DNA from: an uncultured Gammaproteobacteria bacterium
GTDB lineage: Bacteria > Patescibacteriota > Microgenomatia > Levybacterales > UBA12049
DNA: 61,807 nt
Reading direction: 5' to 3'
Assembly (NCBI GenBank): GCA_964603935.1
Contig: CAZRWL010000003.1
Coordinates: forward strand, 1 to 61,807
Position numbers and translations under genes: made by a program. Shown piece by piece: positions 14,103 to 61,132 of this stretch (within the stretch, counting starts at the first letter, position 1; every line of letters begins with the position of its first letter). Under the pieces are notes generated by a model, which saw nothing but the letters and a program-made list of their open reading frames with translations, did no database searches and was not told the DNA's origin.

Positions 14103-15629
14103 TTACTTACTTTTCAAAACTACTTCTATTCTAACATTTTTCTTCGTAACATCTTTTATTGTTTTATTCAATATCTCCTGCGTTTTTGGCTCGCTTAATT
14201 TATCTTTATGAAATTTGAAATTGGTTTCTAAAATTAAACTTTTATTATCATAACTTTTTATTCTGCATCCGCGCAAGACCCCGGCTATAGAATGATTGTA
14301 AGCTTTTACTTTGTCTATCAGCGCGTTCCACAACGCATCATTCTCGCTGTATTTTGTCATGTCTTGTTGGGTAACGTTAAGCGGAACATCGGGCAAACGG
14401 GTGGCGGACAAAGGTGGACGGGTGGCAGAAGAGGAAGGGCTCCCGACAACGCGGACTGAGCTTGACGAAGGAGCATTGGCGGGAGGGAAACTTCTGACAG
14501 GACCCGATCCCACAACGGCCAAACCCCACTCGACGATTACTAACTCCAAAGGAATTTGCGGCAGAACTGCGTACTTTAATTCACCATACGCTTTTGACAA
14601 CAACTCTATTAGTTTTTTTACCTCCCCCATTTCCAAACTTGTCTGCGCTGCGAAACCCAAACGCTCTGACAAATTCTGAACTTCTGCTTTTAACAATAGG
14701 CTATTGTGCAAGGACTCAATAAGATTTTGCATAAAATGTCCAATGTCTATTCCTTCACCTACAAGCTTTGCAACTCCCTCCAAAGCGCTTTTTGTCTCTT
14801 TATTTTCAAAATTTCTTATCATTTGCGCTATTTGATATTCCATACTTGAGATTTTATGCTTGCTTTCAATCAAGTCTTTCGTAATCTTACCGTCTTTGGA
14901 AATTTGGGCCATCTCTTCCAAAATTTTTACCCCGTCCCTGAAACTTCCATCCGAAAGTCCGGCAATTAAGCTTAAAGCCTCTTTATCCGCAATTAAACCT
15001 TCTTTTTTTATTATTCTTTCGAATGACCTGACCAATTCTCCTCTTGTCGCTTTTTTGAATTGTATGCGCAAACAACGGGACAAAATCGTGTCGGGAACTT
15101 TGTGAGATTCAGTTGTGCAAAGAATAAAGACCACATGACTTGGAGGTTCTTCCAAAGTCTTAAGAAGCGCGTTAAATGCCTCCGTAGTTAACATGTGGAC
15201 TTCATCAATGATATAAACTTTTTTGCGCGCGCTTATCGGCGAAAGCTTTACTTTTTCACGCAGATCTCTTATCTCATCTATTCCCCTGTTAGAGGCTCCG
15301 TCTATTTCCAGAATATCCAAATTAGTTCCATTTGTAATGGACTTGCATTGATCGCACTTGTTGCACGGCTCCACATTAGCGTTAAGCGTTAAGGGTGAAG
15401 AGTGAAGGTTTTTTTTGTCTTTCCCCTTTCCGCTTTCCCCTTTCCCTTCACAATTAAGGGCCTTTGCGATAATCCGGGCAGTTGATGTTTTTCCCAGACC
15501 TTTGGGACCTGTGAAAAGAAAAGCATGCGAAATTTCGGAGCTCTCCAAAACACTATGGAGCTTATCTCTAACCTCTTTACTGTCTAATTCATCTATTGTC
15601 TGCGGACGGTATTTTCGATAAAAAACCAT
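14103..15629 (-). CDS. dnaX: DNA polymerase III subunit gamma/tau
   Basis: Walker A GPKGLGKTS, zinc module NC...EPCNKCDQC, and SRC motif SRCLRIQF. It carries REP-B and REP-D in-frame inserts. Confidence 0.95.
   Translation of the reverse strand: MVFYRKYRPQTIDELDSKEVRDKLHSVLESSEISHAFLFTGPKGLGKTSTARIIAKALNCEGKGESGKGKDKKNLHSSPLTLNANVEPCNKCDQCKSITNGTNLDILEIDGASNRGIDEIRDLREKVKLSPISARKKVYIIDEVHMLTTEAFNALLKTLEEPPSHVVFILCTTESHKVPDTILSRCLRIQFKKATRGELVRSFERIIKKEGLIADKEALSLIAGLSDGSFRDGVKILEEMAQISKDGKITKDLIESKHKISSMEYQIAQMIRNFENKETKSALEGVAKLVGEGIDIGHFMQNLIESLHNSLLLKAEVQNLSERLGFAAQTSLEMGEVKKLIELLSKAYGELKYAVLPQIPLELVIVEWGLAVVGSGPVRSFPPANAPSSSSVRVVGSPSSSATRPPLSATRLPDVPLNVTQQDMTKYSENDALWNALIDKVKAYNHSIAGVLRGCRIKSYDNKSLILETNFKFHKDKLSEPKTQEILNKTIKDVTKKNVRIEVVLKSK
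14420..14505. repeat. REP-B element (86-bp GC-rich), in-frame inside dnaX
   Basis: gggtggcagaagaggaagggctcccgacaacgcggactgagcttgacgaaggagcattggcgggagggaaacttctgacaggaccc aligns to 47968-48055 with only a handful of mismatches. Confidence 0.85.
15377..15450. repeat. REP-D element (LTLNA family), in-frame inside the dnaX zinc module
   Basis: tagcgttaagcgttaagggtgaagagtgaagg...ctttcccctttccgctttcccctttcccttcac. It encodes GKGESGKGKDKKNLHSSPLTLNA between NC and EPC. Confidence 0.6.
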
Positions 15630-18000: not shown

Positions 18001-18002
18001 TA

Positions 18003-28573: not shown

Positions 28574-29370
28574 TGTCAACAGATCAACAAATCCCACCTC
28601 GAAGGTGGATTAGCTTGGCACCCTTTCTTTCTACACCTTGTCTTCCAAGGTTAGGTGCTTGATTTGTTCTAGCCGTCTTGCGTAATCAACCCTGTCCATA
28701 ACAAACTGTCTATATTTTTCTTTTGACGGAAACAAATCTAAAACAATTTCTTTATCTGCAATCTGGGTCTTTTGATTTCCCAAATATTCTGGATAAGACG
28801 ACCATTGATAATTTTCCAACTGTTCCGGCTCCACCAAAAATGATGACGTCGGATTCAAATGTATATATCTTGATACATGCATCAACTGCTCGTCCGATTC
28901 AACCCTAACTCCCTTAAACGCTCCTTGAAACAGGGGGCCAATCCGCTCATGTTTGGTATTAAAATATTTAGTATAGCTATTTGTAAAATTAGCTGCAAAA
29001 ATTGAGACGCCGTTTTTTATCATCTGCTTAACTAAAAAGTGAAAATGGTTAGGCATTAAACAATAAGAGATAATTTTAATTAGCTTCTGATTTTCGCCGT
29101 GAACTTTTTCAATCAGTTTGATTTTTTCAGGCTCGGAAAGAACTAAGAATTTAGATAGCTTAAAGGGTAAATTTGCAAATCTATAAAAATCAAGCGTTTT
29201 CACCCCCCTCTCAAATTCCCTTTTGCTTGTGAATGTAGGTCTTTTTTCAACCCCTCGATTAAAAATGTGGTAAATCTCATCGTTAGCAAAAACGAACTTT
29301 CTATTAGTAGCCATAACTATACCTTACAGTAAAAAAGAGGATGTGTCAAGCTAGACCACCTCGAAGGTGG
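28574..29370 (-). mobile_element. IS200/IS605-like or RAYT unit: Y1 transposase gene flanked by identical hairpins
   Basis: tgtcaa...ccacctcgaaggtggat occurs on both sides of the gene, with hairpins at 28594-28608 and 29356-29370. Confidence 0.7.
28631..29314 (-). CDS. IS200-like / REP-associated tyrosine (HUH Y1) transposase
   Basis: HUH motif YCLMPNHFHFLV and catalytic Tyr region SRYIHLNP. Confidence 0.8.
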   Translation of the reverse strand: MATNRKFVFANDEIYHIFNRGVEKRPTFTSKREFERGVKTLDFYRFANLPFKLSKFLVLSEPEKIKLIEKVHGENQKLIKIISYCLMPNHFHFLVKQMIKNGVSIFAANFTNSYTKYFNTKHERIGPLFQGAFKGVRVESDEQLMHVSRYIHLNPTSSFLVEPEQLENYQWSSYPEYLGNQKTQIADKEIVLDLFPSKEKYRQFVMDRVDYARRLEQIKHLTLEDKV

Positions 29371-42960: not shown

Positions 42961-43019
42961 TTATTTTTTATCCAAACCGTTAATTAAACCCCTTATCTCC
43001 CCAACCAAATATAAAGTCC
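42961..43019 (-). pseudogene. relic of a folC/Mur-ligase 3' end
   Basis: The minus-strand translation ...TLYLVGEIRGLINGLDKK-stop contains a 25-nt exact copy (42992-43016) of the folC codons for LYLVGEIR at 47161-47185. Confidence 0.55.
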
Positions 43020-43089
43020 TTATCACCATTGACGGAAACGCAAAAGGTATGTAACATTAAATACAATTAACAGAAATTAGTTTTCAATT

Positions 43090-43806
43090 ATGACTCAAGA
43101 AATTGCAACAAAAATAGCAGTCTTTCAAAAAAAAGAGATACGCAAAATCATCCATAAAAATGAATGGTGGTTTTCAATTATAGATATTATTGAAGCTTTA
43201 ACTGGTACAAAAAGACCAAGAAAATATTGGAATGATCTCAAAAAGAAACTAATAAAAGAGGGTTATTCCGAAGTGTCCGAAAATATCGGACAGTTGAAAA
43301 TAACCGCTCCAGATGGGAAAAAACGAGAAACCGATTGCGCCAACACGGAAACTGTTTTTCGTATAATTCAAACCATCCCGTCATCTAAAGCCGAGCCATT
43401 CAAGCGTTGGTTAGCAAAAGTGGGATATGAGCGAGTGCAAGAAATTGAAGATCCGGAACTTGCAACTAAAAGAACCAAGATGCTCTATAAGCTTAAGGGG
43501 TATTCTGAAAATTGGATAGAAAAACGAATACGTGGAATTGCTATCCGCGAAGAATTGACGGATGAATGGCAAAAACGAGGCGTAAAAGAACAAAAAGAAT
43601 ATGAAATATTAACTGCCGAAATTTCCAAAGCAACCTTCGGCGTGACACCGAGTGAATATAAAAAATTAAAAGGACTGAAGCGGCAGAATTTACGCGACCA
43701 CATGAATGACTTGGAATTAATTTTCAATATGCTCGGTGAGCGAGTAACAACAGAAATCTCTCAGCAAGAAAAACCGGATAAACTATTTGCCAAAATCAGA
43801 AGATAA
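43090..43806 (+). CDS. Bro-N domain / DinD-like (phage antirepressor-type) protein
   Basis: FQKKEIRKIIHKNEWWFSIIDIIEAL... and KAEPFKRWLAKVGYERVQEIEDPE are typical of Bro-N family proteins. Confidence 0.65.
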   Translation: MTQEIATKIAVFQKKEIRKIIHKNEWWFSIIDIIEALTGTKRPRKYWNDLKKKLIKEGYSEVSENIGQLKITAPDGKKRETDCANTETVFRIIQTIPSSKAEPFKRWLAKVGYERVQEIEDPELATKRTKMLYKLKGYSENWIEKRIRGIAIREELTDEWQKRGVKEQKEYEILTAEISKATFGVTPSEYKKLKGLKRQNLRDHMNDLELIFNMLGERVTTEISQQEKPDKLFAKIRR

Positions 43807-43856: not shown

Positions 43857-46800
43857 ATGTTTGCAAGAATCCGAGAAAAAGTAATTGCCCTCAGACAAAA
43901 AATCGCCCTCTCTAATAAAAAACTCATCGGTCTTGTCATAGTCCTTCTTACGGTAATCGCATTGCCTTTAATAGTTATTGCCTCCCAGCAAGAACAGGAT
44001 ATCCGCCAGCACGCCTCCGAACCAACATCTTCGCCTAACTTAACCAATCAACAAGAGGCATCATCTGCGACGACTAAAGATGCCGAACAAATTGAACTAC
44101 TAACTAATCAATTATTCCAATTCAATAAAAAACTAACTGGCGATGTAGGATCTTTATCGGAAGAAGATCAAACAGCGAGAAACAGGGCAACCGCTAATCT
44201 TACAGAAATAGCTAAAAAGCGAAAGGCTTTACTTCTACAAGTTATAGAAGAAGACCCGGAACTCTTTTTGTCTATTGCTTTGAAACAGACTATGCAATCC
44301 TCCATGCCTGCTGCAATTCAAGAATATCTTGAAAAGGAAGTGACTGTTGAAGGGAAAACAGAAGTGCTTCATATTGATGATTTTAAAAATCCCGCTAATT
44401 CCAGATTCAATTATTTTTTGAAGATAGGCAATGAGAAGATTAATTTATTTCCTACTCAAGAACTTCCCATTCCATCCGGGGTTAAAGTCAGAATTAAAGG
44501 CATTCAATTGGATAACAATATCGTTACAACTGCAGATAGCATGTCTTTTCAAGTTTTGGAAGCAGCGCCCAAACCCGAGTCAGTCGGAGATCAGAAAACA
44601 CTGGTACTGCTCATACGATTCAAAGATTCAGGAGATCCTCCTTTCACCAAAGAAAAAGCCCATGATCTTATTTTTAATGGGCAATTCCAGAAATTTTACA
44701 AGGAACAATCATATAATCAAGTTTCTTTCAGCGGAGATGTATTCGGATGGTTTTCTTTAACATACAATAATACTCATCAAGCTTGCGATGTCATTTACAG
44801 CAAGACTATTTCTAACGTCATTGATATTCCCAAACTTGTTGCTGACAACAATATTGAATTGGGAATCTACAGCCGGCTTATTTTTGTGGTTGACACTAAT
44901 TATAGCGGATGCTCTTTTGTTGGAACATTTGAAACAACTATTAATGGTAAAACTTATCGCTTCTCCGAAGCTGCTGTTGGCGCTCATAATTACACTAACC
45001 CCTGGTTCAATCACCCGTTCGAATGGACAGAGCTTGATTTCACTTTAAGTCACGAGTTGGGACATAGTCTTGGAGTGCTACACGCAAATGGCTGGGACTG
45101 TAAGGATCAGACATTATACGGGGACTGCACTCATATAGAATACGGCAATTATTTTGATACCATGGGGATTGGCTCATTTTCGCTTCACTTCAATGCTTTC
45201 TACAAAGAACTGCTTGGCTGGATGAATTCTTCTTCGACTTTACTAATCAGCACTTCCGGCGTGTATACACTTAACCCTTTGGAATTAGATTCGGATAAAA
45301 AATTCGCCAAAATACAGATTCAAAACTCCAATGTTATCCCTTATGATTTGGAATATAGAAAAGGCATAGGCTTTGATGCAAATCTCAATAATGTCACGCT
45401 CTTATCTAACCAATCAGGCTTATTTATTAACCACATAATGACAGACCCTGCATTACCATTAAATTATTCTTATACTCATCTTTTAGATATTACTCCCTCA
45501 TCAAAGTTTTGGGCTGATGATATCGACGACGCTGCATTAAATGGAGAAAAGATTTTTACAGACCCGGGCAGAGGAATAGCGATTGGCCCCATCATAAAAA
45601 CAGACGCATCTTCTATAACTTTTGAAGTTAATCTTGCCATTCCATCTTGTGTTCGTCAGAAACCTTTGGCAAGCACTGTTTATATTTCTAACCCTGTGGT
45701 AGCCGGAGGTTTTGGCACCATAGATATCAAGCTTACGAATGCCGATGGCTTTGGTTGCGGCGAATCAAAATTCCATATAACACCCACCTTACCCTTAGGC
45801 TGGAAAATAATTGACATACATCCTTCCGACAATATCGTTATTGATGCAGACGGAAAATCTTCCATATATATTACTTTTAATCCTCCTGAAAATACTCCGG
45901 TTGGTGATTATTCGTTGAGTTATGATATTGTAAACCTACAGAGCGGTCTTAAAACGCATGCAGAACTTACTACAACAATTAAGCCTGCTCTTAAGATTTC
46001 GAAAATTGATCCGCAAACAGGAAATATTGGCACAGAAATTACAATTTTTGGCTCGGGATTCAGCGAAGACGCAAGCTATAATAAAATCTCTTTTTCTAAT
46101 CCCCAAGGATATGCGATAACCAATTCAAAATTATTTCAATTACCAACTAATGAACAGGTATTAAAATTTACTGTTCCGGAGACAATATGCGCAAGCGGTG
46201 GATTGGGTGCTCCTGGAATACTTGGAGGGGGATGTTCGCCTAAATCAACCCCTTCGGGTACTTACGGAATAAATGTATACAATGACTTTAGTGGCAGTAA
46301 TACTATGAACTTTCAGGTTATTGAACCTCCCACCCCCACCCCGGACTTAACCCCTATCCCCATCAACTGGAAAACTGATTCTGTTTCTCTTCAAGCTGAC
46401 AATTTCTTTATTAAAATGGACAATAGAATATTTAAACCAAACTCTAACTTTAAACTTCATTCAGATTCAGGTAAACCAACCTTCACTACCAGCACTCTAG
46501 AAGCAACGTGGCTTGAGGGAAAAACAGAAATGAGACTTTTTATCTACTTTAGCATTGATGCCAACAATCAATGGAAGGTAACAGAAATGAGAACGTATGA
46601 CGGCAAGACTCCCGGAAATTGGCTATACTATTTAGGAGGAGAGTCAGGCAAACTCGGCGTTCCATTTGCTAACAGCAACTACAGTAAGCAAAGCAAAGAC
46701 GGCAAAGGATATGTTAATTTTGGAAAAATAAAATTAGAGCCCTTCTTAAATCTTGTCACTCCCACCCCAACTCCTAAGCCAACGGCTACTCCTACACTCA

Positions 46801-47153
46801 AACCTACACCAACACCCACCCCTATTCCCGTAAAAACAGTTAGCGTTTTAAATAAAGGAAGTTTTCCATTGTCAATTATAAATGTCTCTGATTCCAGCAT
46901 TAACTTCACATGGAGAGATATTGGCACAGCTTACAAATATACTGTTGAATATTTCTATGGAGCTGCCAATATAAAATATAGTGTAAATAATACTCTTTCT
47001 TTATCTCCTGTTACCGCTCCTCCCGTTAATAGGCAGTATAAAAGTACGGTTAATTTGAGCACAAAACAAAGTATGCATATGCGAATGAAAGCTTGCAGAG
47101 GAATAAACGCTAATTGTTCATTTTCGGATGAACTTTTTATCACTACTAAATAG
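43857..47153 (+). CDS. large secreted/anchored metzincin-like zinc metalloprotease with IPT/TIG and Pro/Thr linkers
   Basis: N-terminal signal anchor, HELGHSLGVLHA (HExxHxxGxxH), an IPT/TIG-like segment KISKIDPQTGNIGTEITIFGSGF, and TPTPTPKPTATPTLKPTPTPTP linkers. Confidence 0.7.
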   Translation: MFARIREKVIALRQKIALSNKKLIGLVIVLLTVIALPLIVIASQQEQDIRQHASEPTSSPNLTNQQEASSATTKDAEQIELLTNQLFQFNKKLTGDVGSLSEEDQTARNRATANLTEIAKKRKALLLQVIEEDPELFLSIALKQTMQSSMPAAIQEYLEKEVTVEGKTEVLHIDDFKNPANSRFNYFLKIGNEKINLFPTQELPIPSGVKVRIKGIQLDNNIVTTADSMSFQVLEAAPKPESVGDQKTLVLLIRFKDSGDPPFTKEKAHDLIFNGQFQKFYKEQSYNQVSFSGDVFGWFSLTYNNTHQACDVIYSKTISNVIDIPKLVADNNIELGIYSRLIFVVDTNYSGCSFVGTFETTINGKTYRFSEAAVGAHNYTNPWFNHPFEWTELDFTLSHELGHSLGVLHANGWDCKDQTLYGDCTHIEYGNYFDTMGIGSFSLHFNAFYKELLGWMNSSSTLLISTSGVYTLNPLELDSDKKFAKIQIQNSNVIPYDLEYRKGIGFDANLNNVTLLSNQSGLFINHIMTDPALPLNYSYTHLLDITPSSKFWADDIDDAALNGEKIFTDPGRGIAIGPIIKTDASSITFEVNLAIPSCVRQKPLASTVYISNPVVAGGFGTIDIKLTNADGFGCGESKFHITPTLPLGWKIIDIHPSDNIVIDADGKSSIYITFNPPENTPVGDYSLSYDIVNLQSGLKTHAELTTTIKPALKISKIDPQTGNIGTEITIFGSGFSEDASYNKISFSNPQGYAITNSKLFQLPTNEQVLKFTVPETICASGGLGAPGILGGGCSPKSTPSGTYGINVYNDFSGSNTMNFQVIEPPTPTPDLTPIPINWKTDSVSLQADNFFIKMDNRIFKPNSNFKLHSDSGKPTFTTSTLEATWLEGKTEMRLFIYFSIDANNQWKVTEMRTYDGKTPGNWLYYLGGESGKLGVPFANSNYSKQSKDGKGYVNFGKIKLEPFLNLVTPTPTPKPTATPTLKPTPTPTPIPVKTVSVLNKGSFPLSIINVSDSSINFTWRDIGTAYKYTVEYFYGAANIKYSVNNTLSLSPVTAPPVNRQYKSTVNLSTKQSMHMRMKACRGINANCSFSDELFITTK

Positions 47154-48668
47154 ATAGCTTCTTATCTCCCCAACCAAATATAAAGAACCCGTAACGACAA
47201 TAATTGCCCTATTGTTAAATTGCTTCATTGCTAAATTGCTCATAACTAATGCTTTCTCCAGGGCTTTTTGCGAGTCTTTTTCAACGGCAACCTTAACATC
47301 TTTCTTAATACTTAATACTTCATACTTAATACTTTCCGCGTCCGCGGAAGCGTGTAAGCTAACATCTGTTTTTGCGCTAAACTCCGTAACAATAATTTCA
47401 TCCGCTACTTTTACAATTTCCCTAAGCATTTTTTTAATATCTTTATCGAATTTAAAACCAATTATAAAAATCTTCTTTTTTTTTGGGAAGAGTTTTTTAA
47501 GACTTTTTAGAAACTCTTTCATTTTTACGGGATTATGCGCGCCGTCGAGAACAATTGTTGCCTTCTTGTCATGCTGAACTGGTTTCAGCATCTCATTCTT
47601 TCGTAAAGAGACCTGCCTGCGGGCAGGAGATCCCGAAACAAGTTCGGGATGACATTTTATAACCTCAAACCGCCCCGGGAAAAAGGCTGTTGACAAAGCT
47701 TTTCTAATATCTTTTTCCAAAACTTTCTTGTCCCTCGAAGCTTCAGCGAAGTGGGAAAACCCAAACTTTTTTAATTGCAATACTGCTTCAACTGCCAAAC
47801 TCGCATTCTCTTTCTGATAATCTCCCAACAAAGATAATTTGTAATTTTCAATAATTGACTCATCAAAATCTTTTCCAAGTCTGAATAATTTTGCTCCAAC
47901 CTTTTCACATCTATCTTCAATTATTTTAATTACCGAAGACTTCTTTACTCCCGATATGACAACTAAAGGGGTGGCAAAAGAGGAAGGGCTCCCGACAGCG
48001 CGGACTGAGCCTGTCGAAGGAGCACTGGCGGGAGGGATTACTTTTGACAGGACCCCGTGTAATTTTATAATCCCCGCTTTGGTTCTGGCGATTTTCTCAA
48101 TTGTTTTTCCCAAAATATCCGTGTGGTCCAAACCCACATTAGTCAGAACCGCAACCAAAGGATAAAGCGTGTTCGTCGCGTCAAACTCCCCTCCCATCCC
48201 CACTTCCGCAACCGCGATATCTACTTTCCGGTCTACAAAGTATTTAAACGCCATTGCTATTAAAATCTCAAAATACGACGGAGCTCCAACCGGCATCTTC
48301 CTCATTAGTTCAATAGTCTGAATCATTGAACTGACAATGTCCGTAAATTTTTCATCCGAAATTTGCTCCCCATTTATTTGCAATCTTTCATTTACTTTTT
48401 GCAGGTGCGGGGAGATTGTTAAACCAACCTTATAACCTGCGGTTTTCAAAATATGGGAAATTAGATATGCAGTTGAACCTTTCCCTGATGTTCCGCCAAC
48501 CAAAATTGATTTAAATTTTTCCTGCGGGTCCCCCAAAAGAGACAAAAAAATCCGCATTCTTTCCAGCGGATCATGATGTCTTAGGAATTGCGGATCGATT
48601 TTATAATAAATCTTTCCAATAAAACTTTCCAGATATTCCAGGGCTTGCTTATAATTATTAGTCTTCAT
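47118..48668 (-). CDS. folC: folylpolyglutamate synthase / dihydrofolate synthase
   Basis: Mur ligase P-loop GTSGKGST, with FPGRFEVI ... LDGAHNP. It contains complete REP-A and REP-B copies in-frame. Its last 14 codons lie antisense to the end of the metalloprotease gene. Confidence 0.9.
   Translation of the reverse strand: MKTNNYKQALEYLESFIGKIYYKIDPQFLRHHDPLERMRIFLSLLGDPQEKFKSILVGGTSGKGSTAYLISHILKTAGYKVGLTISPHLQKVNERLQINGEQISDEKFTDIVSSMIQTIELMRKMPVGAPSYFEILIAMAFKYFVDRKVDIAVAEVGMGGEFDATNTLYPLVAVLTNVGLDHTDILGKTIEKIARTKAGIIKLHGVLSKVIPPASAPSTGSVRAVGSPSSFATPLVVISGVKKSSVIKIIEDRCEKVGAKLFRLGKDFDESIIENYKLSLLGDYQKENASLAVEAVLQLKKFGFSHFAEASRDKKVLEKDIRKALSTAFFPGRFEVIKCHPELVSGSPARRQVSLRKNEMLKPVQHDKKATIVLDGAHNPVKMKEFLKSLKKLFPKKKKIFIIGFKFDKDIKKMLREIVKVADEIIVTEFSAKTDVSLHASADAESIKYEVLSIKKDVKVAVEKDSQKALEKALVMSNLAMKQFNNRAIIVVTGSLYLVGEIRSYLFSSDKKFIRK
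47161..47185. repeat. 25-nt exact direct repeat partner of 42992-43016
   Basis: cttatctccccaaccaaatataaag is present at both coordinates in the same orientation. Confidence 0.9.
47568..47654. repeat. REP-A element (complete), in-frame inside folC
   Basis: gtcatgctgaactggtttcagcatctc ... ctgcctgcgggcagg ... gagatcccgaaacaagttcgggatgaca. It is translated as CHPELVSGSPARRQVSLRKNEMLKPVQHD. Confidence 0.85.
47968..48055. repeat. REP-B element, in-frame inside folC
   Basis: ggggtggcaaaagaggaagggctcccgacagcgcggactgagcctgtcgaaggagcactggcgggagggattacttttgacaggaccc. It is translated as PPASAPSTGSVRAVGSPSSFAT. Confidence 0.85.
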
Positions 48669-49316: not shown

Positions 49317-49324
49317 TTATTGTT

Positions 49325-51358: not shown

Positions 51359-51361
51359 AAT

Positions 51362-52288: not shown

Positions 52289-52289
52289 T

Positions 52290-52949: not shown

Positions 52950-52953
52950 TTTT

Positions 52954-54411
52954 ATGATACTATCTTTAGTTATTTTAGTGCCGTTGGCAGCTTCCATCCT
53001 TTCGCTTCTTGTAGCAAAAAGAGCGAAAAATTTATACAGAATAGCTGCTGCTGCCTCTTTCATTGAGCTTGCGGCTTCTTCAGCCGTAACTTATTCAATC
53101 GCAGTGAATAATTCTCCTTTCTCATGGACGCCTTATTTCTCGGTTGATTTCTTGGGAGCAATTTTGCTGATGTTGGTTGCAATCGTGGGACTTGCAACAT
53201 CAATATATTCTATCGGATACTTTAAAGCCGAAGTAGATAAAAAAATTATCGGCTTTCACAGAGTGAGAGAATATTTCATACTTTTGCATTTATTTTTAAT
53301 GGCAATGTTTTTTGCGATAACCACAACAAGCCCGGTTCTGATGTGGATTGCCATTGAAGCTACAACTCTCTCAACAGCCTTCCTCATAAGTTTTTATAAT
53401 AAGCCATCTGCCATGGAAGCGGCATGGAAATATCTGATTATCAATTCTATCGGACTTTTAATAGGATTCCTGGGCACATTGCTCTTTTTATCTATTGTTT
53501 CCCACCCCTATCCTATAAATTTAATAGACTGGAGCGCATTGGCAAAAAATGCTTCCAATGCAAATCCCCTTATAGTTAAAATTGCTTTTGTTCTTGTATT
53601 GATCGGGTACGGAACAAAAGTCGGGCTTGCGCCCATGCACACATGGCTGCCGGATGCCCACAGCAAAGCACCTGTACCTTTAAGCAGTCTTCTTTCCGGA
53701 GTCTTATTAAATGTTGCTTTCCTTGCAATCATACGTTTCAAAATAGTTACCGACTTGTCCGTAGGAGCTAACTTCTCACAAGGACTTCTGATATTCTTTG
53801 GAATTTTGTCTATCGTAATCGCCTCCCTTATTATTCTTATGCAGAAAAATTATAAGAGGCTTTTGGCGTACTCAAGCATTGAACATATGGGAATTATTGC
53901 TTTGGGATTTGGATTTGGAGGCATTGGAATTTTCGCGGCATTATTGCACATGGTATACCACTCGCTCGCAAAATCCATGCTGTTTTTAGCCTCAGGAAAT
54001 ATTTTCCTGAAATATAGTACCACTAGAATATCAAGCACAAAAGGAGCGATCTTCGTTCTCCCCGTTACGGGAGTTCTGTTCCTTGCCGGATTTTTGGCTA
54101 TAACAGGAATTCCGCCCTTTGGCACGTTTCTGACCGAGATATACATTGTTTCGGCCGGACTCAAAAATCATCCTGTCATTGTAATCACTGCTATTATCGC
54201 GCTTACTCTTGCTTTCGTAGGTTTTCTAAGAAGCGTTTTCTCTATGGCTTATGGCGAACCCGGAGAAATTACAAAAGGAGAGAAAAGCAAATGGACTACT
54301 CTTCCTCTGATTGCTATATTTATTATCTTGCTTGCATTAAGCTTATATTTGCCTGACTTCATAAAAGTCTTCATACAAAATGCCAGCGCTTTGATTTCTA
54401 AAACCATATGA
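52954..54411 (+). CDS. HyfF/NuoN/M-like antiporter-type membrane subunit
   Basis: GTKVGLAPMHTWLPDAHSKAPVPLSSLLSGVLLN. Confidence 0.85.
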   Translation: MILSLVILVPLAASILSLLVAKRAKNLYRIAAAASFIELAASSAVTYSIAVNNSPFSWTPYFSVDFLGAILLMLVAIVGLATSIYSIGYFKAEVDKKIIGFHRVREYFILLHLFLMAMFFAITTTSPVLMWIAIEATTLSTAFLISFYNKPSAMEAAWKYLIINSIGLLIGFLGTLLFLSIVSHPYPINLIDWSALAKNASNANPLIVKIAFVLVLIGYGTKVGLAPMHTWLPDAHSKAPVPLSSLLSGVLLNVAFLAIIRFKIVTDLSVGANFSQGLLIFFGILSIVIASLIILMQKNYKRLLAYSSIEHMGIIALGFGFGGIGIFAALLHMVYHSLAKSMLFLASGNIFLKYSTTRISSTKGAIFVLPVTGVLFLAGFLAITGIPPFGTFLTEIYIVSAGLKNHPVIVITAIIALTLAFVGFLRSVFSMAYGEPGEITKGEKSKWTTLPLIAIFIILLALSLYLPDFIKVFIQNASALISKTI

Positions 54412-55979
54412 AAGCATCAGAAATAATAAAACAATATATTCCGGAAGTAAAAAATGCCAAAACAGAGGGCAATTTGCTTCTTTTTGAGGTAACTGCATCA
54501 GAATTGGCAGCTAAATATTCTGAACTGTATGTAACGAATAAACTGCCTTTAAAAACTATAAAAGCAACTGACGAAAGAAAAAAAGACGGGTGCTTTAGAA
54601 TTTATTACATTTTCGGCGTGCCTTCGGAAAATATATTTATAGCCCCCTATTTGAGCCTGAAGGATACTGCCTCTTTCCCGTCAATTGTCCCGACAATTCA
54701 TGAAGCAACCCGCTATGAGCTGGAAATAAAATCATTTTTCGGTCTTGATCCGGCAGGACATCCCCAATCAGGCGAACAATTTATCCTGCAGGAAAACTGG
54801 CCATTAGATGCATTTCCTTTGCGTAAAGATTTTCTCTGGGACAAAAGGCCGCCGACGGCTCACAATCCCTATCATTTTCAGGAAGTTGAGGGAGAGGGAA
54901 TTTACGAAATACCGGTTGGGCCTGTTCATGCCGGAATAATTGAGCCAGGTCATTTTAGATTCAGCGTTGCAGGAGAAGAAATTGTTTCCCTTGAACCGCA
55001 GCTGGGATATACCCATAAAGGAAGCGAAAAATTATTTGAAATACTGCCTTTGGAAGACAAAATCAGACTTTCAGAAAGAATTTCCGGCGATAGCTCATTT
55101 GCTCATTCTCTGGCTTTCTGCATGGCCATGGAAAGCTTAAGCGATATAAAGACTTCTGCCCGCGCGGATTATCTAAGACTTATATTTGCCGAACTGGAGC
55201 GAATTGCCAATCACTTTGGCGATATTGGTTTCATTATGAATGACACGGGTTTTGCTTTCGGAGGAAGCAACGGAACAAGACTTCGCGAGTATATCATGCA
55301 ATGGAATGAAAAACTTACAGGAAGCAGATTTTTGCGCGGCGTTAACACAATTGGCACAGTTACCAAAGACATTTCAAGCTCCGACAAAAAAGAATTAACA
55401 GATTCCCTTGGAAAAATAGAAAAAGATTTTTCTGAAGTAATTAGTATCGCGGAAGATAACGAATCTTTAATTAACCGCCTCAAAGGAACCGGAACTCTAA
55501 ATCTGCAGGCAGGCTTGGATCATGGAATAACCGGCATAGCGGCGAAAGCACTGGGAATTCAATCTGATGCCAGAATAAATCATCCATACGGCGCTTACAA
55601 AGATCTTCCTCTCCATATCTCAACCGAGCAATCAGGAGATGTTTATAGTCGGTATCGCGTGAGAGTTAAAGAGGTAAATTCGTCAATTGCTCTTCTTAAA
55701 AAAGCTTTGGAAAAACTCCCTGAAAGCAATCTTGAAAACGGAAAGAATATCAAACTTAGGAAAAATTCCTACGCAGTCAGCGTTGCTGAAGGATGGCGCG
55801 GAGATATTGTTTATTTTGTAAAAACAGATGAAAAAGGAAATATTGAAAGAGTCGGAATCAGGGACTGCTCATTTCTAAATTGGGCTGCTCTGCCTCATGC
55901 AGTTTTGGGAAATATAATCCCCGATTTCCCATTAATTAACAAAAGCTTCAACCTCTCCTACTCCGGCAATGATAGGTAA
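54408..55979 (+). CDS. HycE/HyfG-like NuoC-NuoD fusion large subunit lacking the NiFe cysteines
   Basis: GPVHAGIIEPGHFRFSVAGEEIVSLEPQLGYTHKGSEK is diagnostic. The expected RxCGxC appears as ERISGDSS, and the C-terminal DPCxxCxxR appears as NLSYSGNDR. Confidence 0.85.
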   Translation: MKASEIIKQYIPEVKNAKTEGNLLLFEVTASELAAKYSELYVTNKLPLKTIKATDERKKDGCFRIYYIFGVPSENIFIAPYLSLKDTASFPSIVPTIHEATRYELEIKSFFGLDPAGHPQSGEQFILQENWPLDAFPLRKDFLWDKRPPTAHNPYHFQEVEGEGIYEIPVGPVHAGIIEPGHFRFSVAGEEIVSLEPQLGYTHKGSEKLFEILPLEDKIRLSERISGDSSFAHSLAFCMAMESLSDIKTSARADYLRLIFAELERIANHFGDIGFIMNDTGFAFGGSNGTRLREYIMQWNEKLTGSRFLRGVNTIGTVTKDISSSDKKELTDSLGKIEKDFSEVISIAEDNESLINRLKGTGTLNLQAGLDHGITGIAAKALGIQSDARINHPYGAYKDLPLHISTEQSGDVYSRYRVRVKEVNSSIALLKKALEKLPESNLENGKNIKLRKNSYAVSVAEGWRGDIVYFVKTDEKGNIERVGIRDCSFLNWAALPHAVLGNIIPDFPLINKSFNLSYSGNDR

Positions 55980-56083
55980 AATTAACGCTATGAACCGGAG
56001 CAGAAAGTTTATGTTTTTTTGTGATGCGAAATCTCAATTGATATAATTTTACGAACTCTAAATTAATACAACTGAAGGAACAG

Positions 56084-56932
56084 TTAAACCTTCAGTTTAA
56101 ACTTGTAAACCACTTTTCCCATTGCTTCAGCTCTGACTGTTTCTCCTTTAATTCTTACCCATATTCTGTAGGTAATAAATTCGTTGGGAACTCTGTATCT
56201 TTTTCCAAAAAGAGATATTGAAGAATCACGATAGACGAGTCTCCTAATGGTAATCGTCAGAAGTTCTTGGAGCTCCTGTTTAGGTTTTCTCTTTTCACAT
56301 GGAAGGTAAGCCTCAGCAGGAGTCCTTCCATTCATTCCAATGCCACTATGCTTAAACTCCTCATTAAACTTAATCTGCCATTTAAAGAATCTTCTATTTA
56401 GTTCTTCAAAGGATTTAACGTCAAGATTTTCTCTGGCAAAATCTTGTTGAACAAATCTCCAGAATTTTTCAATCTTACCTTTAGTCTGCACTCTATGAGT
56501 AAAAATCAGGTCAATTCCTAAAGCTTTTGCATAAAACCGGAAGGTTGACTGAGCATATTCACCCGTCTGAGTGTACCTTGCGTTTGCTTTGTATTGCGAG
56601 CCCTTGTCTTGAAGCATTTTCTTGGATAATCCCCATTGAAATAGACAGTGATACCAGACTCGAAAGACATTCATTTGTGTTTGTTGGGAAAACCATTTTC
56701 CCCCAAGGATAAACCTTGAATGGTCATCAATAGTTGCAACCAAATATGCATCACCCAAAAAGGGGAAATATAATTTTCCCTGAATATCTGACTGCCATAA
56801 ATCATTTGGGTAAGGCGCGACAAAACGGGTAATTGGCTTCAATCTCTCAACGTTTAGTTGATTTAAACCATACTCAACCCAGACCTGCTGAATTCTCCTT
56901 ATGGAAATGGCGGAAATGCTGGCCAATCTCAA
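56084..56932 (-). pseudogene. transposase DDE (rve) catalytic part
   Basis: Candidate DDE triad in WQSDI, DDHSR/QDKGSQY and KGKIEKFWRF. It lies in the +1 frame relative to the HTH part. Confidence 0.65.
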
Positions 56933-57200
56933 GAACTTTTCTAGCTGATCTCCAGTTGCCTTTTTTCTTTAATTTCAGCACCTCTGAAAGCTGTCTGGGA
57001 GTTAATTTGCGGTTGTTACTATGTCTCAAATCCCTTAGGGCATCCAATCCGCTTCTTGTAACTTTATTTAGGTAACGATAAATGGTTAATCTTTTACAAC
57101 CTAGTATACCTGCCGCTTCTTTACTGGCAATTTTGCCTTTTAAAAGTTTCCCTATTGTTTCCTTTTTAAATTCTAAACTTTGTCTTTTCAATTTTCTCAC
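56874..57200 (-). pseudogene. transposase N-terminal HTH part (split from the catalytic part)
   Basis: The HTH region ASKEAAGILGCKRLTIYRYL. The reading frame ends inside the overlap with the DDE ORF. Confidence 0.6.
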
Positions 57201-57323
57201 CTCCTATCTTTTTGGAAGATAAGTGTAACAATTCAGATTTCGTTTAGATGTATCTATTTAGATTTCGCGTAACATTTTTTTTAATTTTCTTGACAATAAA
57301 TTAAAACCGTGCAACAATAAGTT

Positions 57324-57686
57324 GTGGCAAAAACAAAAAAACAGAAAAGCATGTCTGAGGATACAAGGACAATTGTCGCTATTCTTCTTTTGCTTTTCGC
57401 ATATCCCGTTGGATTCATTTTCATGTTGGGCTGGACTAATTGGTCAAAGGGAGTAAAATGGCTTGTTAGTATTCCTCTGATTATTTCTATTTTAGCTTTT
57501 ATTATTTTTATTTTAGGAATACTATTCTATGCACGCACAGCACGTACCGATCCTTACATACCTACATCTAAACAACTCGACGAAGTGGGACGAAAAGCAA
57601 TCTGCCTTCAAAAATGCGGATTAGATACCAAAGATACTGCATGCATCAATACATGCATGAATAACCCTACTGCTCCCGCTCAATAA
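57324..57686 (+). CDS. small membrane protein with Cys-rich tail
   Basis: GTG start, two TM segments, and a C-terminal CLQKCG...CINTC. Confidence 0.35.
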   Translation: MAKTKKQKSMSEDTRTIVAILLLLFAYPVGFIFMLGWTNWSKGVKWLVSIPLIISILAFIIFILGILFYARTARTDPYIPTSKQLDEVGRKAICLQKCGLDTKDTACINTCMNNPTAPAQ

Positions 57687-57757
57687 CTACACAAACCGGG
57701 CTTGAATATATCAAATGCGTCTCGGGCTTTTGAGAATATCCAAAAAGAAATCGGACC

Positions 57758-58171
57758 CTATAATTCTTTAACTTTTTCAATAATAATTGCATAGGTTTTT
57801 TTGTTTTTATCTGAAAATATTTGTTGGCATTTATTAGCAACACACTGAGTATTTGTTTTCATAGCATCCGTATTGGATTTATTTGGCAAATAAATCGCCT
57901 CTATTGACACATTCTTTCCCAGATATTGATCTAAATTATCGCTACTTTTTGCAACATAAAAAGAGCCATCCGGAATATTGTGCGTACACGCTACGGTGTA
58001 AATACCATTTTTATCTTTTTGAATAGAACATATTGCATTTACACCTATTGCTGGATTAGGAGGACCAATTGGAGAAATCATTGCTTCATAGAAAAACCAC
58101 CCGATAAAACCCAAAGAACATACTAGAAGAACAGTAAGAGTAACCAGCTTCGCATTCATTAATAATAACAT
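57758..58171 (-). CDS. hypothetical membrane-anchored protein
   Basis: The ORF is trimmed to the internal Met (MLLLMNAKLVTLTVLLV...), because the track's N-terminus overlaps the fic promoter repeats. Confidence 0.35.
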   Translation of the reverse strand: MLLLMNAKLVTLTVLLVCSLGFIGWFFYEAMISPIGPPNPAIGVNAICSIQKDKNGIYTVACTHNIPDGSFYVAKSSDNLDQYLGKNVSIEAIYLPNKSNTDAMKTNTQCVANKCQQIFSDKNKKTYAIIIEKVKEL

Positions 58172-58220
58172 TATATCACTTTTATTCGTGCGCAAACCGG
58201 GTTTATTTCCCAGGCGGGAT

Positions 58221-58272
58221 TTACAATTAGCTTGACAATTAGCTTGACAATTCCCTGAAATATAGCTATAAT
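58221..58272 (+). promoter_or_regulatory. three tandem 12-bp units (ttgacaattagc-like), the last forming TTGACA-17-TATAAT for fic
   Basis: Sequence ttacaattagc ttgacaattagc ttgacaattccc ... tataat. The -10 lies at 58267-58272, 7 nt before ATG 58280. Confidence 0.55.
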
Positions 58273-58279
58273 GATGTTC

Positions 58280-59293
58280 ATGCATAGACCTACCTACACT
58301 ATTACCCCAAAACTCTTAAGCGCTGTAAGCGAAATAGAACGTTTGTACGGAAGACTGGAAGGAATGAAGGCGCCTCAAAGTCTGCTTCTTAATCTTGAGC
58401 GGGATAATCTTATCGAGTCCTCATATGCTTCCAATAGTATCGAGGGGAATTCTCTTTCTCAACCAGCCGTTACCAATCTACTGTTAAATGACAGAGTTCC
58501 GACCAACCGTGACGAAAAAGAAGTTGTCAATTATTTTCAGACTCTTAAGACTCTTGAAAAACGACTGAAGGAGCCCATAACTGTAACGGAGATTTTAAGT
58601 ATCCATGCTCAACTAATGTCCGGTATAGATGACAAAAATAAAGGACAAATAAGGAATGAAGAAATCATCGTGGGCAACCGTGACGCACAGGGAGAGTTTT
58701 TGATAAGACACAATCCTCCTTTTCACGATAGGGCAACTATTGAAAAAGCATTACGAGAATTAACAAGTTGGCTAGGAGTGAGCAAGGAACTTCCTATTCT
58801 TAAAGCCGGAATATTCCATCATCAATTTGTCTATATCCATCCTTTTGTCGATGGAAATGGTAGAACATGTCGCTTGACTACTGCTCTCATCTTTTTAAAA
58901 CATAATTACCTGATTAATAAATACTTTGTCCTGGATGATTACTATGACATTGATAGAAATAGCTATTCAGATAATCTACATTCCGCTGACAACGGAAATC
59001 AAACACAATGGCTTGAGTATTTCGCAGAGGGAGTAAAATTTTCTCTACAGAGCGCTCTTGGTCGTATTGAAGCTGGAATGAATCAACTCTCTTTTGGCAT
59101 GCGTCCCAGTCCACGAGAGACTGATGCATTAAAAATAATACAAAAATACCGACAAATGAATACAGCAGATTTGGTAAGAGAATTGAAAATTACCAGACAG
59201 CAAGCCTTCAATCTATTAAAAGCATTGACTGAAAAAGGATTTATAGAGAAGAAAGGAAGCACGAAAGATAGTTACTATATTCTAAAAGACTAA
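58280..59293 (+). CDS. Fic family protein (class II, with N-terminal inhibitory motif)
   Basis: Active site HPFVDGNGRTCR, inhibitory helix motif SNSIEG (SxxxEG), and a C-terminal wHTH. The start is set at ATG 58280 because 58271 overlaps the -10. Confidence 0.9.
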   Translation: MHRPTYTITPKLLSAVSEIERLYGRLEGMKAPQSLLLNLERDNLIESSYASNSIEGNSLSQPAVTNLLLNDRVPTNRDEKEVVNYFQTLKTLEKRLKEPITVTEILSIHAQLMSGIDDKNKGQIRNEEIIVGNRDAQGEFLIRHNPPFHDRATIEKALRELTSWLGVSKELPILKAGIFHHQFVYIHPFVDGNGRTCRLTTALIFLKHNYLINKYFVLDDYYDIDRNSYSDNLHSADNGNQTQWLEYFAEGVKFSLQSALGRIEAGMNQLSFGMRPSPRETDALKIIQKYRQMNTADLVRELKITRQQAFNLLKALTEKGFIEKKGSTKDSYYILKD

Positions 59294-59360
59294 AATTACT
59301 CGTGATTCGCATGGGGCCAAACCACACACGAACCGGGCTTGAAATAGATGAACAAATGAG

Positions 59361-59417
59361 GACTTTCCCATAATTAACAAAAGCTTCAACCTCTCCTACT
59401 CAGGCTCCGACCGCTAG
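59361..59417 (+). pseudogene. displaced 3'-end fragment of a HycE/HyfG-like large-subunit gene
   Basis: It encodes DFPIINKSFNLSYSGSDR-stop, against DFPLINKSFNLSYSGNDR-stop at 55923-55979. 45 of 57 nt are identical, including a ~30-nt exact core. Confidence 0.7.
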
Positions 59418-59424
59418 GGAATTT

Positions 59425-59835
59425 TTATAAGTCGGAGGCGAGTTTGAAGCCGAGTTTTTGATACCAAGTGTCAAAAGAAAATATTGTCTGCGCATTAAGT
59501 TTTTTGGCAGTAGCTGCAACAAGCGCGTCAAAAAAAGTATTCTTCTTGGAGCCTTTAGGATTATAGATTTCCGCAGCCTCTTGCATTATATACTCATCAA
59601 CATATTCCACCTCGAATAATCCTTTTTTATAGTGTTGGACTAATAAATCTGCAACAGTAGGATTTGCTAATTTTCGATGCAGCGTCGTAATTGCCTCTGC
59701 TATAGCAGTATTAGGAAAAATAACAGTGTGTCCCTCCGAATATAAATACTTGCTAATTTTCGATGCTTCTTCATAATGACTGTCTTCTTCCAGAAATAAA
59801 GCAATTAACACATCGGCATCGCCAATAATAATCAT
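59425..59835 (-). CDS. vapC: PIN domain toxin (VapC-like)
   Basis: MIIIGDADVLIA... (first acidic residue) and FFDALVAATA..., downstream of an RHH gene. Confidence 0.8.
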   Translation of the reverse strand: MIIIGDADVLIALFLEEDSHYEEASKISKYLYSEGHTVIFPNTAIAEAITTLHRKLANPTVADLLVQHYKKGLFEVEYVDEYIMQEAAEIYNPKGSKKNTFFDALVAATAKKLNAQTIFSFDTWYQKLGFKLASDL

Positions 59836-59840
59836 AACGT

Positions 59841-60116
59841 TTACACTCTAGCGTTAGGGTTTCTTTTCTTACCGCCCCATGTATAATAATCATGGTTTTC
59901 AGATAAATCTCTTGGACCCTTTATATGAAGTTTTTTTGCCAAATTTGCAATATCAATAAGCGCCCTCGCAGAAGAAGATTTTTTGGGCTCGACTATTTTT
60001 AAGCCCGCTTCCAAAATGTTTCGGGTAACTTCCGCCTTGCTTTTGCCTCTCAAACGGGCCAAATAAGCGATTTCCCTATTCATTTCTTCGGGTAAATAAA
60101 TATGTGTTCTTTGCAT
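59841..60116 (-). CDS. vapB: ribbon-helix-helix antitoxin (VapB/CopG-like)
   Basis: RTHIYLPEEMNREIAYLARLRGKSKAEVTRNILE has an RHH pattern. Confidence 0.7.
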   Translation of the reverse strand: MQRTHIYLPEEMNREIAYLARLRGKSKAEVTRNILEAGLKIVEPKKSSSARALIDIANLAKKLHIKGPRDLSENHDYYTWGGKKRNPNARV

Positions 60117-60123
60117 AATACAT

Positions 60124-60145
60124 ATTATAGCACATGTAACATGTG
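60124..60145 (-). promoter_or_regulatory. vapBC -10 (TATAAT) plus palindromic operator candidate
   Basis: On the minus strand, TATAAT lies at 60124-60129, 7 nt before the ATG at 60116. The perfect inverted repeat cacatgt-a-acatgtg lies at 60131-60145. Confidence 0.5.
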
Positions 60146-60173
60146 TATGTCAAGATTACACGGACTATTTACC

Positions 60174-60202
60174 TTGACTGTGGTAATTTTACTTGCTACA
60201 AT
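60174..60202 (+). promoter_or_regulatory. sigma-70-like promoter (TTGACT-17-TACAAT), 9 nt before ATG 60212
   Basis: The hexamers were read directly. Confidence 0.5.
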
Positions 60203-60211
60203 GCCTCACCT

Positions 60212-60898
60212 ATGATTGAAAGAGGAATTAATCCGCCTCAAAAAGATTCCATTAATAGTCTTGTTGAACTTAGGAGGGCATTTCGGAGGACGCACAACAA
60301 CCGTCAGCCCCTTAACGATGATACAATTGACAAAACTCTTGAACTTCCGCTTTTAGGAGATGACCAGGAACAGGGAGGCAAAGATGGGGAAGGATTTATC
60401 ACCGTTAACGGACGCGAGGAATTCATTGTTTATCAAGGAACTCCGTATAATCTTATTCGTGAGGGGATCAATTGGGTTAAACCAACATCTTCTGATGTAG
60501 TATACGATCTGGGATGCGGTTACGGAAGAGTCTGCCTGTATGGAGCACTTACAACACGTGCGAAATGGAAAGGAATAGACGTTGTCAAATCTCGGCTAAG
60601 TGCTGCTCGAAGAACAAAAAAAAGACTGAATATTCCGAATGTAGAATTTATTCAAGGGAATGTTGTGGATCAAGATTTGTCCGACGGAACTATATTTTAC
60701 TTATTTAACCCATTTAATGCAGATACGCAAGCTGAAGTAGTAAACAAGTTAAAAGAAATTGCAGAAAAGAAACCAATTCGTATTCTTTCATATTGGACTT
60801 GGTATTCTGAAACCGATCACAACAATATTCCCTCTTGGCTTAGGCTTATTAATCAAAGTCGTCAGAATTATTATTTTATGCAGCTCGCATCAAAATAA
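60212..60898 (+). CDS. class I SAM-dependent methyltransferase
   Basis: Motif I VVYDLGCGYGR, followed by IDVV and FLFNPF. The start is trimmed to ATG 60212 (MIERGINPP). Confidence 0.7.
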   Translation: MIERGINPPQKDSINSLVELRRAFRRTHNNRQPLNDDTIDKTLELPLLGDDQEQGGKDGEGFITVNGREEFIVYQGTPYNLIREGINWVKPTSSDVVYDLGCGYGRVCLYGALTTRAKWKGIDVVKSRLSAARRTKKRLNIPNVEFIQGNVVDQDLSDGTIFYLFNPFNADTQAEVVNKLKEIAEKKPIRILSYWTWYSETDHNNIPSWLRLINQSRQNYYFMQLASK

Positions 60899-60907
60899 GT
60901 ATTTTTG

Positions 60908-61072: not shown

Positions 61073-61132
61073 AAATACAAAACATTATAGCAAATCATTC
61101 AACTTGATGTCACGGCATCACTTCTTGGAGTT

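Follow-up and report, generated by a model that had tools for sequence, protein, structure and literature searches.

At the 3′ end of a hycE-like gene (hereafter hycE), the window—a 61,807-nt contig (62 kb) of an uncultured groundwater bacterium of the candidate phyla radiation (CPR; Patescibacteria)—carries a 3.4-kb island framed by two diverged copies of the last 18 codons of that gene. We put the probability at roughly 0.6 that this stretch is an attachment site (att)-flanked, integrase-less remnant of a site-specific integration, that is, a decayed or trans-dependent islet. The island would have entered when the final ~57 nt of the Ehr/HyfG-like gene recombined with a diverged counterpart on the incoming DNA, and a crossover inside a 31-nt core would have kept the gene whole (copy 1) and placed an orphan fragment (copy 2) against the old neighbour, vapC. 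We infer that a site-specific recombinase made this joint and has since been lost or acts in trans; with no recombinase aboard, the island may represent the remnant of one or two integrative elements, an element akin to the cis-mobilizable elements (CIMEs), or a cassette using a recombinase from elsewhere. An IS481-like insertion sequence (IS) with a broken transposase would have inserted afterwards, and the arrays and internal remnants described below would fit tandem accretion.

Two copies of a gene end with an exact core and diverged arms

An earlier note on this DNA had reported two copies of the gene end with 45 of 57 nucleotides identical; both the positions (Table 1) and the identity were exact on recheck, and the shared core, given there as ~30 nt, measures 31 nt (TAATTAACAAAAGCTTCAACCTCTCCTACTC). 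Copy 1, which translates as DFPLINKSFNLSYSGNDR followed by the stop, completes the 523-aa open reading frame (ORF) of hycE, and its C-terminus agrees with that of 120 homologues, across which these 18 residues are almost invariant. Copy 2 reads DFPIINKSFNLSYSGSDR followed by a stop, and its DFPI variant (Ile) is absent from 120 of 120 homologues.

The differences between the copies are confined to the arms: none of the 31 core positions is mismatched, as against 12 of the 26 flanking ones, and a run of at least 31 matches given 12 randomly placed mismatches has a probability of P = 1.6e-4 (1e-3 at the codon level). Orthologues at 74% amino acid identity differ from either copy at 3–7 of the 31 core positions, and the core is therefore not invariant at the nucleotide level. 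Beyond the 57 nt, similarity drops abruptly to background on both sides (13–15 identities per 60 positions in register). Of the 12 changes, all but one are silent, retain the stop or exchange a residue for a similar one, arguing that copy 2 derives from a once genuine gene end. Moreover, divergence outside the core amounts to 46%, compared with 27–31% between copy 1 and the 74%-identical orthologues, which argues that copy 2 is older or foreign.

An exact core with diverged arms, together with coding retained in an untranslated copy, is what reciprocal exchange between two related sites would leave behind, and such a mosaic is classically seen with integrative elements that insert at a gene's 3′ end and bring a replacement end. 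As in CIMEs, direct repeats with an identical core lie at both borders of the island, with the intact gene end on one side and the orphan repeat on the other. The earlier note had advocated a replacement 3′ end (an attP mimic) over a simple tandem duplication. The mosaic fits that proposal, but either tail may be the replacement, at folC as at hycE; the tail of one relative (L253, see below) is of the copy-1 type. The attP-mimic reading is the best supported one, yet it belongs to a known class of elements.

Similar architecture at folC and at two Fic loci

The hycE island had been likened to a second one at folC (47118..48668, minus strand), and the same architecture is indeed present there: the intact and the orphan folC ends share a 25-nt exact core, have diverged flanks and enclose an island of 4.1 kb. 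Using the Logan k = 31 unitigs of the source groundwater runs, on which we relied for junctions and depth, we found both folC junctions to be crossed by unitigs from three runs, with no skip or back joints.

A third case comes from an unrelated contig (L088), found via the closest homologue (82% identical) of the Fic gene in the hycE island. Here, the last 37 nt of an unrelated upstream gene (ending in KNPIPFNWLIVN and a stop) recur 2.9 kb downstream at 95% identity, with changes that keep the coding (ATA>ATC, TGG>CGG, TAG>TAA), and a partial copy lies between two cassettes, the first comprising Fic and a 91-aa gene, the second a 329-aa gene. In another Fic locus (L089), Fic adjoins tRNA-Gln and a degenerate copy of the tRNA-Gln 3′ end; a second copy of this junction (16686–16790 of the locus), 7.8 kb away from the intact Fic, runs from a degenerate tRNA-Gln 3′ end straight into the terminal ~90 nt of a Fic gene, a remnant that is the deletion derivative of a second Fic cassette.

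The folC gene itself contains two in-frame insertions (47562–47654 and 47969–48037) that are absent from the 59%-identical orthologue in L003. One is a repetitive extragenic palindrome (REP)-like double-hairpin repeat, whose family has at least six members in the window; the second insertion is a repeat of 69–87 nt, rich in GC, a 93%-identical copy of which lies in frame in dnaX (14103..15629) at 14420–14488. The folC and dnaX insertions resemble the in-frame palindromic-element insertions of Rickettsia. A Y1_Tnp (IS200/RAYT-like) gene at 28631..29314 on the minus strand, which also occurs beside folC in L003, is a candidate for mobilising the TGTCATGCTGAAC...GTTTCAGCATCTC repeats of REP-like type. 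In run X1, a coexisting strain has 786 other letters in place of 2.3 kb of the surface-protein gene of the folC island (44022–46363).

Relatives of the hycE junction and searches for a parent element

The best named homologues of the window's proteins are found in metagenome-assembled genomes of Levy-, Wildermuth-, Davies- and Paceibacteria. An alignment-based search for related loci returned 80, mostly distant ones, and a single-protein search returned none. Four loci with hycE orthologues of ~74% amino acid identity (L002, L003, L004 and L253) served for comparison at hycE, and L088 and L089 for comparison of Fic.

In the window, the stop codons of copy 2 and the convergent vapC are 7 nt apart, a spacing that would fit a formerly tight convergent gene pair. 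Downstream of hycE in L253 lie an unrelated 190-aa gene (a 1-kb insert), vapC (66% amino acid identity), the antitoxin gene (74%) and tRNA-Ile; vapBC and tRNA-Ile therefore constitute the ancestral right flank. The tRNA-Ile is preceded by two unknown genes in L002 and by a PIN/antitoxin pair, with the PIN gene right next to hycE, in L003; because the latter is not homologous to the window pair, we dropped L003 as an empty site. Other genes follow hycE in L004. With the window, five genomes have five different gene sets directly after hycE, which marks the hycE/vapC junction as an insertion hot spot.

The earlier note's statement that no integrase gene lies in cis was borne out. Among all ORFs of at least 100 aa in the window and 4 kb beyond, domain scans found no Phage_integrase, Resolvase or Recombinase domain, and no recombinase was found around five Fic loci elsewhere. 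The island ORFs, scanned with Pfam, NCBIfam and PADLOC, contained no integrase, excisionase or transfer gene, the frameshifted DDE transposase of the IS being the only hit of this kind.

Several results weigh against a site-specific integration. Neither the circular or integrase-carrying forms nor the empty sites that the earlier note had suggested looking for were encountered. The viral, metagenome, phage and plasmid collections yielded no circular or integrase-bearing form: the exact cores had 0 matches among viral and metagenome contigs, the island DNA matched no phage or plasmid record, and searches limited to exact cores and close relatives found no parent integrative and conjugative element (ICE), integrative and mobilizable element (IME) or prophage with a matching integrase and attP. 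Among the loci examined, none is an empty site with the same flanks, and relatives lacking the island carry other inserts; the nearest syntenic one, L253, has its unrelated 1-kb insert and no hycE′ copy. A second C-terminal copy is present in 0 of 55 further hycE loci and in none of L002, L003, L004 and L253. A recombination hybrid, furthermore, predicts that the native tail is that of copy 2, but L253, which alone among the relatives shares the right flank, has a tail (AAC GAT AGG TAA) that is identical to the copy 1 tail at 15 of 18 positions and to the copy 2 tail at 9 of 18. This weakened our early inference that the native tail is that of copy 2, for which the evidence from three relatives at greater distance ranges from neutral to slightly favourable. 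The hycE and folC cores share no sequence, from which it follows that one recombinase cannot explain both and that the single mechanism proposed earlier for the two islands is reduced to an architectural analogy. Finally, the Logan unitigs break exactly at the hycE core (55934–55962 and 59372–59400). As k = 31 equals the length of this core, the integrated and excised states yield identical 31-mer sets and unitigs cannot separate attL/attR from attB/attP at hycE; the evidence for the integrated order comes from the original assemblies and from equal depth.

At the far end of the right flank, a 5′-truncated tRNA-like stretch (60907–60999, minus strand) lies directly 3′ of tRNA-Ile(GAT) (61000–61072), shares the 18-nt 3′ end of this tRNA and contains ~35 extra nt in its T-loop. 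The stretch, which is also present in L002 (96.8%), L003 and L253, received no ARAGORN or Rfam call and may represent either an atypical RNA gene or the scar of an integration.

Alternative origins of the repeats

The best surviving rival—possible, though in our view unlikely—dispenses with a dedicated recombinase. Circularised foreign CPR DNA, carrying a donor hycE tail and accessory genes, would have entered by a single RecA-type crossover within the 31 nt; the folC island (with its 25-nt identity) and the L088 array would share this origin, and selection would keep only those insertions that leave the target whole, hence the bias towards 3′ ends. The lack of a recombinase in 62 kb and near four other Fic loci speaks for such a capture, as does the presence of two unrelated cores in one genome. 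Core lengths of 25–31 nt are near the RecA minimum: Shen and Huang are said to have placed, in 1986, the minimal length for RecA-mediated exchange near this range. In addition, hycE tails are so conserved across CPR genomes that foreign DNA would often share a stretch of this kind. However, homologous recombination prefers long homology, whereas all three cases span 37–66 nt and have sharp ends; the sharp left edge and its constant distance from the stop are those of a defined att site; the circular double-stranded intermediate that would be needed is not supplied by natural transformation; and the boundary motif repeated beside copy 2 (see below) suggests a defined element end.

A local origin is improbable. 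Tandem or slipped-repair duplication of the last 57 nt, followed by insertions, decay of the orphan and gene conversion of the core, would agree with two copies lying 3.4 kb apart in one genome with an IS between them. Neutral decay of an untranslated copy should, however, be neither nearly all synonymous or conservative nor keep the stop codon; the divergence outside the core exceeds that to orthologues; and the same pattern is seen at folC and in L088.

More doubtful still is an assembly artefact, in which an empty-site chromosome and a free circle (A′-core-B′) were joined by the assembler at the shared 31-mer. The breaks of the Logan graph at both cores and the identical 31-mer sets of the two states are in line with this. 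Yet two assemblies, the window and contig JACQKM010000005 of GCA_016204565.1 (99.97% identical to window positions 46619–61807), give the integrated order, island depth in run X2 is 29.5 against 27–29 in the flanks, and unitigs do run through the comparable junctions at folC.

With a DDE transposase gene inside the island, the IS481-like element, or a composite transposon, might be suspected of having moved it, the repeats then being a target duplication. We rejected this highly improbable scenario: the IS is a single copy whose own 51-nt inverted repeats and T-runs lie wholly inside the island, its transposase is frameshifted, and the 57-nt diverged repeats are not identical and far exceed any DDE target duplication. 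Least credible of all is that a second hyf-like operon decayed and left copy 2 as its final trace, which the earlier note had named as what would refute its reading, having seen no upstream homology by eye. Nothing speaks for this beyond the fragment itself: when the whole 523-aa protein was compared with the window (tblastn, E ≤ 50), residues 506–523 gave the sole second match, with nothing else in any frame near 56–59.4 kb, in-frame stops stand immediately upstream of copy 2, and the space upstream holds an intact same-strand Fic gene that ends 67 nt before it.

Relation to known integrative elements

Under the site-specific reading, the closest counterparts are the CIMEs. Integrase-less, att-flanked islands are an already described class (CIMEs, PMC5704250), so the hycE island would be a recognisable rather than a new kind of element. 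CIMEs, along with tandem accretion, have been documented behind the target gene fda, at its 3′ end, in Streptococcus thermophilus for the ICESt1/ICESt3 family (PMC5704250; Pavlovic 2004 and Bellanger 2011 on CIMEs, as reviewed therein). Both kinds of island occupy the 3′ end of a housekeeping gene, have attL/attR repeats that include the gene end, lack integrase and transfer genes, and show internal att remnants and arrays through successive integrations. Unlike for CIMEs, no integrase-bearing parent ICE or IME is known for the lineage of the window, and its host is a CPR bacterium without a known conjugation system; the island is just 2.1 kb without the IS, and its mobilisation in cis is putative.

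A second parallel is offered by e14 and phage 21 of E. coli, which Hill et al. in 1989 and Campbell in 1992 reportedly described as integrated in icd. Both elements encode an integrase and an excisionase of their own and duplicate a segment of ~165 bp. As in the window, they provide an alternative gene 3′ end with mostly synonymous differences, and the displaced end (icd′) is orphaned at the far border; by contrast, the segment at hycE is 57 nt long and comes without a recombinase.

The dusA islands likewise are site-specific islands in a conserved protein gene whose interrupted end is restored, but they target the 5′ end and have a dedicated tyrosine integrase beside the att site (PMC4482086), whereas the window island lies at a 3′ end and has no adjacent tyrosine integrase. 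Integron cassette arrays resemble the islands in having short cassettes in series, with or without a promoter, repeated sites between them and the recombinase outside the cassettes. They differ in that the window has no IntI or attI and its repeats copy the coding end of the upstream gene instead of forming attC hairpins. Indeed, we rejected integron-like attC sites on two grounds: no Phage_integrase/IntI is present in the window, and the single-strand folding of every boundary is indistinguishable from that of shuffles (z −0.2 to +1.4).

Taken as a single case, the hycE island is an ordinary integration scar. Three islands—two in the window and one in L088—nevertheless have accessory genes between mosaic copies of a gene end and no recombinase nearby, and the cargo of two of them matches anti-phage models. 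It is conceivable, although the odds are clearly against it, that CPR bacteria host widespread recombinase-less mini cassettes, often with defence genes such as a SoFic-like Fic, which insert serially at the 3′ ends of genes and tRNAs, each bringing a short replacement end, and which are moved by a trans-acting chromosomal recombinase or by short-homology recombination after DNA uptake. If true, this would amount to an integron-like exchange of accessory genes in CPR without an integron integrase. CPR mobile elements are poorly charted, as are the routes by which accessory and defence genes reach such tiny genomes; were islets of this type common, they would provide predictable hot spots for new CPR defence genes and point to a trans-acting or homology-based route of insertion.

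Anatomy of the island

All contents that the earlier note had listed for the island are present: the IS481-like element, a small membrane protein, an anchored protein and a class II Fic gene (Table 1). They do not form one unit. The 3.4 kb between the copies (~2.1 kb without the IS) consist of two modules, each ended by the same boundary motif, plus a separately inserted IS.

Table 1 Features of the hycE island, its right flank and the folC island
Feature	Position	Strand	Remarks
Large-subunit gene (hycE-like), NuoC–NuoD fusion, 523 aa	54408..55979	+	Pfam Complex1_30kDa + Complex1_49kDa
Copy 1 (attL-like), last 18 codons and stop of the intact gene	55923..55979	+	Core 55933–55963
IS481-like insertion sequence	56020..57274	−	40 nt past the stop of copy 1
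Small membrane protein, Cys-rich C-terminus	57351..57686	+	Module 1 cargo; 111 aa from ATG
Internal boundary motif AACTACACAAACCGGGCTTGAATATATCAAATG, 33 nt	57685..57717	+	Right after the membrane-protein stop
133-aa protein, N-terminal hydrophobic anchor	57758..58159	−	Module 2 cargo; ORF list; gene also called in L001
Predicted Fic promoter/operator, TT(T/G)ACAATTAGC direct repeats, then TATAAT	58220..58279	+	
Class II Fic protein, 337 aa, C-terminal winged helix, SoFic-like	58280..59293	+	Module 2 cargo
Boundary motif, second occurrence AACCACACACGAACCGGGCTTGAAATAGATGAACAAATG	59320..59358	+	Immediately left of copy 2
Copy 2 (attR-like), orphan 18-codon fragment and stop	59361..59417	+	Core 59371–59401
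vapC (PIN)	59425..59835	−	Pfam
Ribbon-helix-helix (RHH) antitoxin	59841..60116	−	Pfam
Orphan folC 3′ fragment (ending in LYLVGEIRGLINGLDKK and a stop)	42961..43029	−	Core 42992–43016
Bro-N / PDC-S13 gene, defence candidate, folC island	43090..43806		Pfam; PADLOC PDC-S13 4.5e-105
Surface protein, TIG/M6-like, 1098 aa, folC island	43857..47153		Pfam
folC intact end	47118..47190	−	Exact 25-nt core 47161–47185

The internal boundary motif is a gapped copy of the sequence abutting copy 2. The two occurrences align with a Smith–Waterman score of 38, which was reached by 0 of 2000 shuffles of the island and by 1 of 300 of the whole window. The occurrence left of copy 2, whose arm motif reads AACCACACACGAACCGGGCTTGAAATAG, is a candidate arm of the att site, and its repetition is as expected after tandem accretion. 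The motif AACCNGGNTTGAA of the boundary also occurs in the 6-phosphogluconate dehydrogenase gene (gnd) and in a gnd fragment, and is linked to borders only at the two island copies. This fragment is a 27-nt internal piece of gnd (22027–22053) that recurs inverted 13 kb away (35370–35396), at the edge of an accessory block, and contains the AACCNGGNTTGAA motif like the island boundary.

As judged from its own ends, the IS481-like element is a self-contained later insertion, separate from the integration module. Local alignment delimits it by imperfect 51-nt inverted repeats (56020–56070 and 57224–57274) with TGT...ACA tips, and T-runs at 56014–56019 and 57275–57282 could represent a 6-bp target duplication. 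Its transposase matches Pfam rve and HTH domains and the NCBIfam transpos_IS481 model (3e-31, under the cut-off). Inverted repeats, flanking T-runs and the rve domain are as in the IS481 family, but three-frame translation reveals a frameshift in the N-terminal DNA-binding region that splits the transposase into ORFs of 108 and 282 aa. Within the source metagenome, part of the IS reaches a depth of 323 as against ~35 and is present there in multiple copies.

Cargo genes

Of the two small envelope proteins in the cargo, the membrane protein (120 aa if started at the GTG at 57324) has no significant Pfam, NCBIfam or PADLOC family, and the same three collections gave no family match for the 133-aa anchored protein. 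The Fic protein combines a Pfam Fic domain (3e-19) with a MarR-type winged helix-turn-helix. Its translation shows the active-site motif HPFVDGNGRTCR, of the HxFx(D/E)GNGRxxR form, and in the same chain the N-terminal inhibitory motif SNSIEG (SxxxEG type), within the (S/T)xxxE(G/N) pattern of class II. We take this motif to place the protein in class II of the Engel et al. scheme.

Upstream of the gene lie the predicted operator repeats (TTGACAATTAGC) and a TATAAT box, and three other genomes retain the triplet (AACTTGACAATT)x3 ahead of their Fic homologues. When the four Fic loci are aligned, conservation starts at 58220 and spans the operator repeats to the stop codon. There are more than 2000 Fic homologues, with identities of up to 82% and mainly in CPR genomes; identity is at most 30% to viral contigs, and among metagenome contigs four loci alone aligned, at 53–57%.

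The PADLOC SoFic profile matches over positions 21–351 of 361 (5.3e-51), so that each of the two islands carries a gene that fits a defence model (SoFic at hycE, 5e-51; PDC-S13 at folC). Like SoFic, which reportedly protects via AMPylation and abortive infection (PMC12249575), the window Fic would be a single-protein AMPylase of ~340–360 aa with a C-terminal domain and a full-length profile match. It differs from SoFic in falling under the NCBIfam equivalog cut-off (NF046030, 63.9 bits against 550, short of equivalog-level similarity), in being part of a subfamily, found across CPR, that conserves a triple TTGACAATTAAC predicted operator, and in that no AS1-like small downstream gene was identified beside it. 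The anti-phage role we infer for this gene is probably of the abortive-infection type.

The target gene and its operon

The gene whose end is duplicated is the last of an operon (48768–55979) for subunits of complex-I/hydrogenase-4-like type, which encodes, by Pfam, Oxidored_q6, two Proton_antipo_M proteins, NADHdh, a 4L-like subunit and the NuoC–NuoD fusion. The HycE/HyfG-like label it had been given holds insofar as the gene encodes a NuoC–NuoD fusion large subunit, but not as to the metal site: the positions of the two [NiFe] CxxC motifs read RISGDSSFAH and NLSYSGNDR in translation, with all four Cys (4/4) replaced, which makes it an Ehr-type subunit and not a hydrogenase. With both NiFe-ligating motifs missing, a group 4 [NiFe]-hydrogenase large subunit (HycE/HyfG) was ruled out. 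NCBIfam NuoD-type matches remain under their equivalog cut-offs, and the protein is better described as an Ehr/NuoCD-like, HycE/HyfG-like member of an Ehr-type complex. The operon has no gene for a HycF-type 4Fe-4S subunit beside this large subunit without NiFe Cys ligands, and Ehr-like complexes are widespread in CPR (7999 homologues at <1e-20).

Other repeats in the window

The accessory block at 35.3–43 kb, at whose edge the inverted gnd copy lies, comprises RelB, ImmA/IrrE with HTH, two dCTP-deaminase paralogues, tmk and a helicase. Direct repeats of 54–77 nt with 81–90% identity (38321–38374 and 39044–39151) bracket tmk between the dCTP-deaminase paralogues, and a third copy is located at 17882–18004 between HIT and DHH genes. 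These repeats may serve as promoter/terminator modules between genes or mark the borders of cassettes.

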